In this document: in pieces, positions 2,894 to 7,803 of the stretch
How the letters are laid out: each line of letters begins with the position of its first letter
How positions within the stretch are numbered: position 1 is the stretch's first letter
Virus genome (UHGV): UHGV-0222540
Strand: one strand, 5' to 3'
DNA length: 10,280 nucleotides
Source of the DNA: a virus
The notes under the pieces: generated by a model
Databases searched by the model: none
What the model saw: the letters and a program-made list of their open reading frames with translations, nothing else
Told to the model about the DNA's origin: nothing
Position numbers and translations under genes: made by a program

Positions 2894-3199
2894 ATGACAA
2901 TGGTCATAGGACAAGAAGATCAGAAATGCTGCCCGGCTTGCAATTCAGATGCGACCTGGCAGAACCGTGATACCGCTTGGTTAATTAGATGCCCGATGTG
3001 TGAAACATTTCTCATCAGGAATTCCACCATTGAAATTTTGCGAAGTGACGTTGTGTATCGGACATTAGCTGGTGACCTTCTCAAACAAGAAGGTGGGTGT
3101 GACTACATGCTTACAAGAGGAAGGCTTGCGAACTTCGCGAAAACCCAGCTCCCAAAATCAAAGTTTCAGGAATACTTCCCTGGTGACAACTACGAATAA
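2894..3199 (+). CDS. Hypothetical small protein with N-terminal C4 zinc-ribbon motif (cargo/moron)
   Basis: 101-aa ORF on the strand opposite to the late operon. CPAC-x18-CPMC motif (CxxC...CxxC). No signal peptide. Visibly more AT-rich than flanking late genes. Followed immediately by a 14-bp perfect-stem hairpin. Start could be ATG 2894 or 2900; Shine-Dalgarno is weak (GAGAG). Confidence 0.6.
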   Translation: MTMVIGQEDQKCCPACNSDATWQNRDTAWLIRCPMCETFLIRNSTIEILRSDVVYRTLAGDLLKQEGGCDYMLTRGRLANFAKTQLPKSKFQEYFPGDNYE

Positions 3200-4236: not shown

Positions 4237-4572
4237 TTACTCCTTCGAGCTACCAAATTTGTTACCGATTACTCGCATTGCAGCCCCACGAATAGCATCG
4301 ACACCGATCAGCCCCACGCCACCACCAATGGCAACAGAAAGCGATTTAGGCCATCCGACATATTCAAGAGCGGATGCAAAGGTCAGCGTCAGAGCGCCAC
4401 ATAGCAAAATCTCGAGCGTTTTTCGCTTCCAGCCACCACCACCGCCAAAATAGGCGATGCGCAAACCAGCCATAACGATCGACATAATCACTGCACCCAG
4501 CGGTGTGTCTCCACGCCACCAGCTCTGAAACAACTCCAGCCAGTCCGGCCAGGTATTTGGGTTATGAGACAT
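4237..4572 (-). CDS. Holin, class I, distantly lambda S-like
   Basis: Three predicted transmembrane segments and a charged C-terminal tail. The C-terminal two-thirds aligns loosely with lambda S (GLRIAYFGGGGGWKRKT... vs AYLRGRYNGGAFTKT...). Sits immediately upstream of R. Likely start is ATG 4572 (MSHNP..., GAGGTGA upstream) rather than the ORF-track start at 4668, which would overlap the methyltransferase. Confidence 0.8.
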   Translation of the reverse strand: MSHNPNTWPDWLELFQSWWRGDTPLGAVIMSIVMAGLRIAYFGGGGGWKRKTLEILLCGALTLTFASALEYVGWPKSLSVAIGGGVGLIGVDAIRGAAMRVIGNKFGSSKE

Positions 4573-4611
4573 TTCGTCATCTCTCACCTCGCGATATTTG
4601 CGGGTGCTGTG

Positions 4612-4641
4612 TTGGAAATAAAAAGGCCACGCAACGTGGCC
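4612..4641 (-). terminator. Rho-independent terminator (minus strand) between the methyltransferase and the holin
   Basis: GGCCACG-caa-CGTGGCC hairpin (4625..4641), 7-bp GC-rich stem. On the minus strand it is followed directly by TTTTTATTTCC. Lies 8 nt downstream of the methyltransferase stop. Confidence 0.55.
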
Positions 4642-4648
4642 ACCAGAA

Positions 4649-5701
4649 TTATTTCCCCACCAGTTCACTTACCTCTTTCACCGTCTGATTAAACCGCTCT
4701 GACTCAAGTTCAACACCTAACGCCCGACGCCCCAGCGCCATTGCTGCTTTTATTGTGGAACCGGATCCCATAAAGAAATCAGCAACCAGATCACCAGGTC
4801 GACTACTGGCATTGATTATTTGCCGGAGCATATCCGCCGGTTTCTCGCACGGATGTTTACCCGGGTAGAACTGAACGGGCTTATGCGTCCAGACATCGGT
4901 ATAAGGCACGGAGACTGATACGGAGAAATAGCGCCGGAGAGATTTAAACTCATCCAGCAATTCAGAATATTTGCGATTCAGTGAATCATAAGATGCCACC
5001 AGCTGGTGGTGTGGTTGTTCCAGTTGTTGTTCCTGAAACTTCTCTGCCGCTATACGGGAAAACAGTGCCTGTAACTTCCGATAGTCAGCCTCATTCGGCA
5101 ACTGCCACTGACTGGCACCAAACCAGTGGGAAACCATATTTTTCTTACCTGTGGCTTCGGCAATTTGTTTTGCCGTTATACCCAGTTCGGCACGAGCATC
5201 CCTGAAATACGATATCAGCGGTGCCATTATGTGCTGTTTGAGTTCCCTTTCTTTTGCCGCATAGCCGTCACTTTTGCCGCGATATGGCCCCTGGTAATGT
5301 TCAGCAAACAGAACGCGCTCTGTGGCAGGAAAATATGCGCGCAGACTTTCTTTATTACACCCATTCCAACGTCCGGACGGCTTCGCCCAGATGATATGGT
5401 TAAGCACGTTGAAACGTTCACGCATCATGATCTCAATATCAGATGCCAGGCGATGCCCACAGAACAGGTAAAGGCTTCCGGCAGGTTTCAACACCCGCCA
5501 GAACTGGGCCAGACAGTGGTCCAGCCACTTAAGGTAATCTTCGTCCCCTTTCCACTGATTGTCCCAACCGTTAGGTTTCACCTTGAAGTAAGGCGGATCG
5601 GTAACAATCAGGTCAATGGAATCATCAGGCAGGGACTGAATAAAATGCAGGCAATCAGCGTTGATTAAATCAACACTGTTTATTTTTACAGTATTTTTCA
5701 T
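4649..5701 (-). CDS. DNA methyltransferase, beta-class N6-adenine (or N4-cytosine) MTase, apparently orphan
   Basis: 350 aa. Catalytic motif IV DPPY (IVTDPPYF) near the N-terminus and AdoMet motif I FxGxG (DFFMGSGSTIKAA) near the C-terminus; this IV-then-I order defines beta-class amino-MTases such as CcrM and M.HinfI. No adjacent restriction endonuclease candidate. Confidence 0.9.
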   Translation of the reverse strand: MKNTVKINSVDLINADCLHFIQSLPDDSIDLIVTDPPYFKVKPNGWDNQWKGDEDYLKWLDHCLAQFWRVLKPAGSLYLFCGHRLASDIEIMMRERFNVLNHIIWAKPSGRWNGCNKESLRAYFPATERVLFAEHYQGPYRGKSDGYAAKERELKQHIMAPLISYFRDARAELGITAKQIAEATGKKNMVSHWFGASQWQLPNEADYRKLQALFSRIAAEKFQEQQLEQPHHQLVASYDSLNRKYSELLDEFKSLRRYFSVSVSVPYTDVWTHKPVQFYPGKHPCEKPADMLRQIINASSRPGDLVADFFMGSGSTIKAAMALGRRALGVELESERFNQTVKEVSELVGK

Positions 5702-5851: not shown

Positions 5852-6055
5852 TTACTGGCAGCGTCTGAATTTATTCCCATACCCGCCGTTATCCTTCGCC
5901 AGACCCGCCAGAACTAACTGAGTCAGTATTAACTGGCACCGGGCTTCGCTTACTCCGGTAGTTCTCGTCATCATGCGTGGCGTTACCCACTTGTCAGCAG
6001 GTAAGAAATGAAGGACTACGGCGGCGGTTTCTGTCATATCTTGCTGTTTTAGCAT
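5852..6055 (-). CDS. Hypothetical small protein (possible winged-helix-like); start uncertain
   Basis: ORF 5852..6079. The internal ATG at 6055 has the best Shine-Dalgarno (AAGGGA about 9 nt upstream); ATG 6079 and 6037 are alternatives. No recognised homolog. Co-directional with the late operon and divergent from the 339-aa cargo gene. Confidence 0.4.
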   Translation of the reverse strand: MLKQQDMTETAAVVLHFLPADKWVTPRMMTRTTGVSEARCQLILTQLVLAGLAKDNGGYGNKFRRCQ

Positions 6056-6079
6056 GTCTTTTTCCCTTCTGGTTAACAT

Positions 6080-6374
6080 GACATACCAATAACTCTTGTC
6101 TAAAAAGCCAGCAAGATAAAAAGTCAGTATTCACGACCACCAGCGTGTTTACTGTACTGCACCAAGTTTACAGGTACAAAAAAACCGCTCAGCGGCGGGT
6201 TTAAGCTGTGTGGCGAAGTAACCACTCTTAACACAGTAATCTAGAAAATGCGGACCGCGTTAGTGATTTTTATCTGTTTTTCCATTATTTTTTTGCCACA
6301 CAACTTAAAACGAAAAATAAAGCAGGCGTTGCCAAACCTCACGGTGACAGTTGGCTTAGAATGAGGACATACTT
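6080..6374. promoter_or_regulatory. AT-rich divergent intergenic region; likely promoters for the plus-strand cargo gene and possibly a displaced late-promoter module
   Basis: About 295 bp with no ORF and long A/T tracts (TTTTTATCTGTTTTTCCATTATTTTTTTGCC). Plus-strand candidate promoter: TTGCCA (6293..6298), 17-bp spacer, AATAAA (6316..6321). Shine-Dalgarno GAGGA (6363..6367) precedes the TTG start at 6375. Minus-strand -10-like AATAAT at 6289..6284. Promoter calls are by eye only. Confidence 0.3.
6178..6202 (-). terminator. Weak intrinsic-terminator-like hairpin plus U7 (minus strand)
   Basis: Minus-strand sequence CCGC-tga-GCGG followed directly by TTTTTTT. The stem is only 4-5 bp, so this is marginal. 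Lies in the AT-rich intergenic region upstream of the small ORF. Confidence 0.3.
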
Positions 6375-7394
6375 TTGGATAAGTTTGATGAGATTCATGT
6401 AGACATTGAATCTGAGCAGCAAGCCTTCGATTTGCTTGAAAGCTATCTTGATGGTTATGGTTTACCTGACAGTTTAAGTTTCAACGGATGGCCAAACCTT
6501 ACCATCAGATTAACCGGTGAAAAATTCAACAGATCGCTAACACCTTCAGTTATGAAGGGATTTGTTGAAATGCAAGCTCAAATCAACAAATCATATGCCC
6601 TTGCCAAGTACGGTGTCCCTGACGTCCGCAAACTGACCAAAGAAGAACTTGATGCCCTAGAAATAGAAGTTACGGTAGAACAGGGTTCTTCAATAGTAGA
6701 AATCAACATTGATGGCTTTTTAACCAAACTCACACAGGAACTTGTTGGTAAAATGAACGCAACTGAGATCATGTTTACTGTTCTCGGCGCAGCAGTCATC
6801 TGGGGCGGAGTAACAGTATTTAAACGGTTCTTGGACAACCGCAAAGATATTCGCCTTGCAGAAATTGCTAAGGATGGAGAGAAAGAACATCTCCGGACTA
6901 TGCAGATCATGAGCGAGCAAGAAACTAAACGCCTGCGGGTTATTTCAGAAATGATTGCGGAAAAACCACTTCTCGATAACATGGACCGTATGTCGTATGA
7001 CGCTAAAACCCAAATGGTCAAATCCTTTGTGCGTTCAGATAACGCTCAAATTGATGGCGTTACTATTGATTCTGAAATGGCGAAAGAGTTGGTTACGAAT
7101 GCTCGTAGACGTTCATCAGAAATGAGGATTGATGGTATTTACCGAATTGAAGAAGTCAATAATACTGACCCAGAGAGTTTCAAAGTTAAGGTCCGACGCG
7201 TAGATACCGACCAACGTCTAACCTGCGTAGTTCAGGATGTTTTCCTTGATGAATCCGGAAACAAAGAAGCATTGCAGCGAGCTGAGTGGGAAAGAAAGCC
7301 TGTACATTTGAGCATTAACGCAAAACACGTCGATGGTGACATTAAGTCAGCAGTAATTCTCTATGTTCGAGATGTGGAACAAAAGCCCGAGTAA
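6375..7394 (+). CDS. Uncharacterised 339-aa protein with one predicted central transmembrane helix (cargo gene; candidate phage-defence/exclusion function)
   Basis: Long ORF on the strand opposite to all flanking phage genes. Visibly AT-rich against GC-richer flanks. Likely TTG start at 6375 with GAGGA 7 nt upstream; the first in-frame ATG at 6552 has no Shine-Dalgarno. Acidic N-terminal region of about 130 aa, one hydrophobic stretch (IMFTVLGAAVIWGGVTVF) followed by a positively charged patch (KRFLDNRKDIR), then a roughly 185-aa charged C-terminal domain. No family recognised. Confidence 0.7.
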   Translation: MDKFDEIHVDIESEQQAFDLLESYLDGYGLPDSLSFNGWPNLTIRLTGEKFNRSLTPSVMKGFVEMQAQINKSYALAKYGVPDVRKLTKEELDALEIEVTVEQGSSIVEINIDGFLTKLTQELVGKMNATEIMFTVLGAAVIWGGVTVFKRFLDNRKDIRLAEIAKDGEKEHLRTMQIMSEQETKRLRVISEMIAEKPLLDNMDRMSYDAKTQMVKSFVRSDNAQIDGVTIDSEMAKELVTNARRRSSEMRIDGIYRIEEVNNTDPESFKVKVRRVDTDQRLTCVVQDVFLDESGNKEALQRAEWERKPVHLSINAKHVDGDIKSAVILYVRDVEQKPE

Positions 7395-7402
7395 TCGGGC
7401 TT
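7383..7402. terminator. Bidirectional terminator hairpin shared by convergent Q and the cargo gene
   Basis: AAGCCCGA-gtaa-TCGGGCTT, 8-bp stem; the loop contains the TAA stop of the plus-strand ORF. On the minus strand the stem is followed by TTTTGTT, 5 nt after the Q stop (7409..7411). Plus-strand downstream sequence is A/T-rich but not a clean U-tract. Confidence 0.55.
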
Positions 7403-7408
7403 CAATAA

Positions 7409-7786
7409 TCAATCTTTAACTTCGGGGTCCATCTCTAGACTAATTTCCAACATCGATAGGCAGCCATCAATAAACCCCTCAGCCATCTGTATCTCAATGC
7501 GTATTAGTTTCTCATCCTTTTTACGAGCCTTGGCGAGCTTTCTTTTAGAGATACCGTATAGGTAATGGGCAACAAGAAGCGAGTGTTCTTCAGGTCTTTT
7601 TTGCTTTAGACGAGCAAGACAACCTTCAATAATTAATGCATCACTATCTGAACAAGCCTGACGTGTTTTGCTTGTATAGGGAAGAAGCCCTTTAAACCCA
7701 GCAGCTATAGGCGAATAGTCTACCCCAGAACTATCACTCGCCGCCCATGCCCCCCAACGATCCAGAACCATCTGAATATCACGCAT
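7409..7786 (-). CDS. Q: Late antiterminator Q (QuuD-like)
   Basis: N-terminus MRDIQMVLDRWGAWAA... and C-terminus ...AEGFIDGCLSMLEISLEMD closely resemble E. coli prophage QuuD as I recall it. The ATG at 7786 has a GGAG Shine-Dalgarno about 9 nt upstream; the ORF-track start at 7801 is a TTG. Confidence 0.85.
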   Translation of the reverse strand: MRDIQMVLDRWGAWAASDSSGVDYSPIAAGFKGLLPYTSKTRQACSDSDALIIEGCLARLKQKRPEEHSLLVAHYLYGISKRKLAKARKKDEKLIRIEIQMAEGFIDGCLSMLEISLEMDPEVKD

Positions 7787-7803
7787 CAACTTTCTCCACA
7801 AAA

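Follow-up and report, generated by a model that had tools for sequence, protein, structure and literature searches.

PdpSau, encoded by a Staphylococcus aureus prophage, is a single protein that combines a membrane helix with a cytoplasmic part of positive charge and an OB-like region; when phages infect, it changes the potential and the permeability of the membrane (PMC10127798). The Gifsy immunity region carries the validated defences GiPD474 and remAIN (PMC12724215), while TaiEcA of phi80 and Tab of JBD26 are validated defence genes that lie antisense in Q-controlled or late operons and that the prophage expresses in the lysogen (PMC11364771, PMC10884400). Here we describe a gene that shares individual traits with each of these systems. 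It is the plus-strand open reading frame (ORF) 6375..7394 of UHGV virus genome UHGV-0222540, a stretch of 10,280 nucleotides (nt) to which we refer as the window. Its product is a full-length member of PHROG 6191, a family without functional annotation. We take the gene to be prophage-borne, single-gene membrane cargo that is probably defensive; the family to which it belongs is large and uncharacterised, and the N-terminal domain of its proteins is novel.

In its layout, the protein comes closest to AbiP of Lactococcus and PdpSau. All three are single-gene accessory proteins of prophages or plasmids, in which a cytoplasmic stretch of positive charge and an OB-fold-like domain come after one membrane helix; in our case, the membrane span and the cytoplasmic location are predicted. 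Judging from a sequence comparison with PdpSau, the PHROG 6191 protein appears to be an analogue of AbiP and PdpSau and not a detectable homolog. Other parallels concern gene position. Homologs of the gene are found at the place of rexAB in phage lambda, immediately downstream of and co-directional with the repressor, and GiPD474 and remAIN of Gifsy occupy this same position. However, RexAB consists of two genes, including that of the four-transmembrane-helix protein RexB, whereas PHROG 6191 is a single gene without a conserved partner. GiPD474 is a ParA-like ATPase, whereas the PHROG 6191 protein has no ATPase domain, and the gene of the window lies beside Q instead of the repressor. With TaiEcA and Tab it shares an orientation opposite to Q-controlled or late genes. 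These two are nevertheless unrelated proteins (Tab has 83 residues, TaiEcA 26 kDa), and no membrane association has been described for either of them. Each acts by blocking tail assembly and is accompanied by an anti-defence gene next to it, and no such partner is evident here. Finally, PDC-S20 (a KAP NTPase, PifA/QatA-like) and PDC-S42 (LAPAL) reside in the same slot between Q and the late promoter of sister E. coli prophages, in the same antisense orientation. Both are themselves only candidate defence families, and PDC-S42 shows no homology to PHROG 6191 (profile-profile probability 0.2%).

The gene and its family

The preliminary description of this DNA had drawn attention to a 339-residue ORF antisense to a contiguous minus-strand backbone. 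The ORF is indeed the sole long plus-strand gene within the minus-strand lambdoid backbone. The TTG start follows seven bases after a GAGGA Shine-Dalgarno sequence, and both elements are kept in five genera. The ratio of nonsynonymous to synonymous substitution rates (dN/dS) is 0.014-0.036 when the ORF is compared with homologs of 93-98% amino-acid identity. Purifying selection on it is thus strong, which, together with the size of the family, shows that the ORF is a functional gene and did not arise by chance.

The family is large. A protein identical to the 339-residue product is present on at least 1,000 contigs, and a search with the family profile returned 1,523 clusters at 50% identity, nearly all of about 335 residues and matching end to end. 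The whole gene occurs in 87 of 5,426 complete E. coli genomes and is annotated as 'hypothetical protein' in each of them. Members range from Enterobacterales to Treponema. Start codons were inspected in 18 homologs, including those of L002, L003, L008, L018, L024-L026, L028, L031 and L032; TTG was found in 7, GTG in 4 and ATG in 7 (TTG or GTG in 11/18). Every copy in the Q slot of Enterobacterales starts with TTG. The frequent use of TTG and GTG suggests selection for low translation, which fits a potentially toxic protein whose expression is kept down by selection.

The preliminary description had recognised no family, and remote homology searches led to the same result, yielding PHROG 6191, of unknown function, as the only family match. 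The corresponding hidden Markov model (HMM) aligns over its full length (E 1.6e-152, 508 bits, residues 3-337 on profile positions 2-337 of 338). We queried Pfam, NCBIfam, PADLOC and PDB both with the protein itself and with a set of 93 divergent family members. The first two databases gave only sub-threshold noise, for instance FNIII-A_GpJ with 18.6 bits versus a cut-off of 27 bits, and no sequence relative was found in the PDB. In the literature searched, we found no mention of the protein's accession numbers or of PHROG 6191, and nothing under the names PDC-S20 and PDC-S42. GiPD474, remAIN, svsR, Tab, Tai, TerI, HepS and SieA, which we considered from the respective papers, are different proteins.

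An optional cargo slot between Q and the putative late promoter

The gene had been proposed to be moron-type cargo, and comparison with sister prophages that share its flanks bears out that its presence is optional. In strain FDAARGOS_1295 (L012) the slot is empty, and the sequences corresponding to window positions 6176-6281 and 7428-7801 are just 9 nt apart. Thus, the cargo comprises approximately positions 6282-7427, that is, the upstream region, the ORF and a hairpin. In prophages with other cargo, the boundaries lie at 6272/7451 (L013) and 6233/7740 (L014). The flanks alone occur in many more E. coli genomes than carry the gene. Instead of the PHROG 6191 protein, the slot houses a KAP NTPase in L013, in the same antisense orientation (PADLOC PDC-S20, E 3e-177, with additional matches to PifA and QatA), a 145-residue unknown in L014, a LAPAL protein (PDC-S42, E 1e-32) together with a 143-residue ORF in L020, a WYL protein in L021, a DUF6731 protein plus a 122-residue ORF in L022, and two unknowns of 313 and 149 residues in L023. 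Two further occupants are known by annotation only: a 'nucleoid-associated protein' (H80) and an 'AraC family regulator' (H81). Most of the alternative cargo in E. coli prophages is antisense to Q. No homology was found between the PHROG 6191 protein and its slot-mate DUF6731. The gene is therefore optional prophage cargo at a hypervariable site, and in E. coli prophages the place where PF06530-type Q meets the late-promoter region is a hotspot of highly variable cargo.

The left flank, which empty-slot prophages have in common, contains a 23-nt dyad element, TGCGGACCGCGTTAGTGATTTTT, at positions 6249-6271. Within it, the perfect dyad GCGGACCGC is followed by a T-run. The element is conserved in E. 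coli, Pantoea, Entomohabitans, Rahnella and Serratia, and it is also present in the empty slot. Folding revealed no stable RNA structure, which makes a DNA binding site more likely, and the element is probably a site within the Q-dependent late promoter at which a protein binds. Its presence in the empty slot and the missing RNA structure rule it out as a promoter of the cargo or as a plus-strand terminator. A terminator-like hairpin with a run of seven T (6196-6184, minus strand) follows the element. Taken as a whole, the left flank would represent the Q-dependent late-promoter region. On this assignment, the gene does not reside in the classical Q-S cargo interval (stx, nmpC), where the preliminary description had placed it. 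It would instead sit between Q and the late promoter, upstream of the Q-dependent unit, whereas stx-type cargo is located downstream of that promoter. Being upstream of and antisense to that promoter, the gene could not be driven by Q.

Three earlier statements on the surroundings stood in part. The ORF is AT-rich (40-44% GC versus 50-58% further out), but Q and the promoter region are equally so, and the AT-rich tract (39-44% GC) extends from about 6000 to 7800. An own regulatory region exists insofar as 93 nt with the Shine-Dalgarno sequence are specific to the cargo, and we presume that the promoter lies there; no convincing sigma-70 promoter could be pinned within it. The hairpin between the convergent stop codons, thought to be a terminator shared with Q, is real as well (-13.6 kcal/mol, z -5.6 on the plus strand; -13.8 kcal/mol, z -3.3 on the minus strand) and moves along with the cargo, of which it is a part, but only the Q strand has a U-tract.

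Genomic positions of the homologs

PHROG 6191 homologs always form single-gene units, and no partner gene is conserved. Their loci were retrieved broadly with a 44-sequence family alignment as query. Among 19 contexts checked by hand, nine place the gene directly downstream of a CI or S24 repressor, with the two in the same orientation and a cro-like gene opposite (Moraxella phage Mcat17, Salmonella, Morganella, and two each from Acinetobacter, Pseudomonas and Treponema). In five, including the window as well as Pantoea, Entomohabitans, Rahnella and Serratia, it is convergent with a PF06530 Q gene. Two copies lie within morphogenesis operons, one between tail genes I and J of P. aeruginosa and one in a Mu-like head operon of Vreelandella, and one lies at a Mu-like early/late junction. 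The remaining two comprise a copy after a Fic/Doc gene and one of unknown context.

We sorted the 80 best IMG/VR loci by context with purpose-built HMMs and obtained a similar picture: 48 were Q-convergent (gaps of 1-43 nt), 17 were CI-downstream (gaps of 90-329 nt) and 15 were of other types. The two preferred contexts thus account for 14/19 hand-checked cases and 65/80 viral contigs. Homologs are recurrently placed at positions that are transcribed, or transcribable, in lysogens. Copies of approximately 68-70% identity occur in both the CI and the Q slot, indicating that the gene moves between slots. Members from Treponema metagenome-assembled genomes (L034, L035), with 26-37% identity, follow S24 repressors, so that the family and its placement extend beyond Proteobacteria. 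The 50,697 isolated phage genomes contained only three weak matches to the protein. The idea that a viral-contig group of about 46% identity (L108-L117) is located in tail operons was not confirmed.

Some neighbours of homologs deserve mention in their own right. In Acinetobacter-type prophages, a 100-residue ORF without Pfam domain is always found just upstream of the homolog (L007, 5560-5862; L017, 4550-4852) and a GGDEF protein downstream of it; in L007, an HSDR_N-domain protein is encoded between CI and the 100-residue ORF. The latter could be a clade-specific partner or just more cargo. In Vreelandella titanicae, a Fic/DOC protein is encoded directly upstream of the homolog (L027, 3339-3773). 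The homolog of a Mu-like prophage adjoins a gene for a Mu F-like protein that carries a fused PBECR2 toxin-type nuclease domain (L032, 2126-3355).

Architecture of the protein

Several features of the protein that had been read from its sequence were corroborated. The N-terminal 130 residues carry a net charge of -10, the single hydrophobic segment EIMFTVLGAAVIWGGVTVF has a Kyte-Doolittle mean of 1.77, and five K/R are found among the 15 residues following it. Across 265 members, the median Kyte-Doolittle value of this segment is 1.77 and 98% reach at least 1.2, although the family has no conserved column there. Such retention of hydropathy without any conserved column is typical of a membrane span. 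The helix is rich in Gly and Ala. Lysine and arginine average 3.9 on its C-terminal flank versus 1.9 on the N-terminal one, and they are more numerous on the C-terminal side in 78% of the members. According to the positive-inside rule, the excess predicts that the helical region and the OB-fold are located in the cytoplasm.

A confident AlphaFold2 model was obtained from the 44-sequence alignment (predicted local distance difference test, pLDDT, 85.5; predicted template modelling score, pTM, 0.79). It consists of an alpha/beta domain (residues 8-125), a long helix (129-163) whose first 19 residues form the hydrophobic segment, three more helices (167-218), a small beta unit (223-232) and a beta barrel (248-333). 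The protein is built, in this order, of N-domain, hydrophobic helix, basic patch, helices and OB-fold. Conservation peaks in the N-domain, where G104 is invariant and Q67, S105 and L87 are kept in at least 96% of 93 diverse members. A structure search of BFVD with this domain yielded only low-TM resemblances to other uncharacterised phage proteins. Based on the model, the N-domain appears to be a new fold, as no known counterpart was matched.

Proposed function and alternative explanations

From its layout and its placement, the gene is most likely an autonomous prophage accessory ('moron') gene encoding a single-pass inner-membrane protein. We consider an anti-phage function of some kind reasonably probable. 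A defensive role gains contextual support from the homologs right after CI repressors in many genera and from the PDC-S20 and PDC-S42 candidates in the same slot of sister E. coli prophages. The specific proposal that the gene encodes a lysogen-expressed, membrane-anchored anti-phage protein with an AbiP/PdpSau-like layout is one we put forward tentatively, with slightly less than even confidence.

Such a protein might work as follows. The gene would be transcribed in the lysogen independently of Q, either together with CI or from a promoter at most about 100 nt upstream. The product would be anchored in the inner membrane and would protect the lysogen against other phages. The helical region and the OB-fold, predicted to be cytoplasmic, would detect a phage-derived ligand, and oligomerisation via the Gly/Ala-rich membrane helix and the conserved N-domain might then compromise the membrane or block an early intracellular step, so that the infection would be aborted. 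Upon prophage induction, read-through of the early operon past Q would run antisense across the gene and could silence it. This silencing would provide self-immunity without a partner protein. A more far-reaching version, which we regard as unlikely, takes PHROG 6191 as a widespread unnamed single-gene anti-phage family with the N-domain as a new effector fold. Here, a latent helix would be buried and become inserted only after the OB-fold has sensed infection, and self-immunity would be owed to convergent transcription across Q or to shared regulation with CI, not to an anti-defence protein.

A number of results weigh against a membrane-anchored defence protein of this type. Homology to any validated defence system was not found. 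PADLOC-DB v2 (5,027 models) gave no match of the 339-residue protein at E up to 1, and the scan of the 93 divergent members returned just scattered single matches with E 4e-4 or weaker. A single-sequence alignment that suggested homology to PDC-S42/LAPAL was not sustained at the profile-profile level cited above (E 0.3). Alignment of PdpSau to the 93-sequence family profile with hhalign reached a probability of 0.08%, and the membrane helix alone was aligned. In AbiP and PdpSau the helix is N-terminal, whereas here it is internal, behind a conserved domain of 125 residues that those proteins lack. Unlike theirs, the OB domain lacks a basic character (median net charge about 0) and thus gives no indication of nucleic-acid binding. 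The model of the whole protein is compact, and the N-domain modelled alone loses confidence, which suggests that the hydrophobic helix may be buried in a soluble resting state. A topology with the C-terminus inside would require export of an N-domain of 130 residues that contains 12 K/R and no signal peptide. On the side of expression, the 93-nt upstream region contains no credible sigma-70 promoter; the only promoter-like match (6344-6373) would start transcription within the ORF. Moreover, a position beside CI or Q would suit regulatory or host-fitness cargo as well.

This last point leads to the explanation that holds up best among the alternatives, namely cargo unrelated to defence. The protein might be an envelope-acting factor for lysogenic conversion or host fitness, or a modulator of the prophage's own lysis-lysogeny circuit; such a modulator could be, for instance, a membrane protein that affects control of the FtsH or Clp type, or an anti-Q antisense RNA arising from transcription of the gene. 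The two places where the gene recurs, next to CI and convergent with Q, are hubs of regulation, and cargo transcription could enter Q antisense because the plus-strand hairpin has no U-tract. WYL, AraC and nucleoid-associated proteins are among the slot occupants, and the family matched no defence model. The gene is, however, dispensable in otherwise near-identical prophages. Copies in tail or head operons and in Mu-like phages, without Q or CI as neighbour, argue against a role tied to one regulatory circuit. The range of hosts, which extends from the gut to marine and spirochaete lineages, speaks against virulence in a particular host. On balance, we consider non-defence cargo rather doubtful.

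Superinfection exclusion through a periplasmic N-domain, as with SieA of P22 or gp15 of HK97, in which the cell would survive without abortive death, seems improbable to us. The positive-inside rule does predict an N-out, C-in orientation, and the N-domain is the part most conserved across phyla, as expected if it bound a conserved host component. Inner-membrane exclusion proteins made by prophages are well documented (PMC10883804), and the slot pattern would be identical to that expected for a defence protein that aborts infection. Yet the export of the N-domain discussed above is doubtful, and exclusion would leave the large conserved cytoplasmic helical region and the OB-fold without a role. 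The exclusion proteins known to date are small, evolve fast and have a narrow range, whereas PHROG 6191 proteins are uniform in length from Enterobacterales to Treponema. A merely unannotated core phage function in structure, lysis or replication, hinted at by the NCBI name 'putative phage structural protein' on one unrelated slot occupant and by homologs within morphogenesis operons, is highly improbable given that sister prophages whose flanks are intact lack the gene, and that it runs antisense to every phage operon in the window, changes position between phages and has only the three weak matches in isolated phage genomes.

If the anti-phage function were confirmed, a large, taxonomically broad family that is blank in every curated database would join the known repertoire of immunity encoded by prophages. 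In lambdoid prophages of the 82/DLP12 type, the junction between Q and the late promoter, which already houses two PADLOC candidate families and several unknowns, would then be a practical place to mine further defence genes. The gene is small, stand-alone and common in E. coli, Salmonella, Klebsiella and Pseudomonas, and its function bears on host range in phage therapy. Should it not serve defence, it would still encode a conserved, lysogeny-linked, predicted membrane protein with a new fold. The preliminary description had ranked it as the strongest candidate for an undescribed system in the window; this was too strong, as the family is one of many that consist of a single cargo gene and are uncharacterised. 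Prophage hotspots hold numerous uncharacterised cargo genes, and nothing in our findings runs counter to current expectations.

Other features and genes of the window

The positions of all features are compiled in Table 1. All neighbours of the gene are encoded on the minus strand. To its right lie Q, DUF968/HNH, KilA-N and RusA, and to its left a 75-residue PHROG 331 protein, an N6/N4 DNA methyltransferase, holin, lysozyme, Rz, HNH and terminase. No RNA family of Rfam was found anywhere in the window.

Table 1. Features of the PHROG 6191 locus and of further genes in the window (positions in nt).
Feature	Position	Strand	Remarks
Left flank of the slot	6176..6281	-	common to empty-slot prophages; putative Q-dependent late-promoter region
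Optional cargo module, ~1.15 kb	6282..7427	+	upstream region, ORF and hairpin; absent from sisters with the same flanks
Cargo-specific AT-rich upstream region, 93 nt	6282..6374	+	contains GAGGA (6363-6367); absent from the empty slot
ORF, PHROG 6191	6375..7394	+	339 codons, 339 residues; TTG start
N-terminal acidic alpha/beta domain	6375..6749	+	residues 1-125; most conserved part of the protein
Hydrophobic helix, predicted membrane span	6765..6821	+	residues 131-149; from hydropathy
Basic patch KRFLDNRKDIR, then helical region	6822..7034	+	residues 150-220; from AlphaFold2 model
C-terminal OB-fold domain	7107..7373	+	residues 245-333
GC-rich 8-bp hairpin	7383-7402	.	between the convergent stop codons of ORF and Q; from folding energy
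Antiterminator Q, right flank of the slot	7409..7801	-	PF06530, E 1.1e-52; convergent with the cargo
Second antisense ORF	2894-3199	+	101 residues; AT-rich; zinc-ribbon-like
Holin ORF	4237-4668	-	called with 143 residues
Orphan N6/N4 DNA methyltransferase	4649-5701	-	PADLOC MTase_II, E 1.6e-152

The second antisense ORF has weak, sub-threshold matches to Lar/PhnA. It lies between the lysis genes and the HNH/terminase module, a position reported for Tai-type defence genes. It is unannotated in identical RefSeq prophages, has no phage homolog and may not be a gene. In the holin ORF, the holin profile spans residues 35-137 only. The true start is probably an internal codon, and a dual-start holin/antiholin arrangement is possible. 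The gene of the orphan methyltransferase lies in the late operon, between the late promoter and the holin, where cargo is classically found, and many sister prophages have conserved it. In a related prophage of APEC O78 (L001, 4224-4517), the lysis cassette is adjoined by iss, encoding the increased serum survival lipoprotein, a bor homolog; thus, the same prophage lineage also carries virulence cargo.

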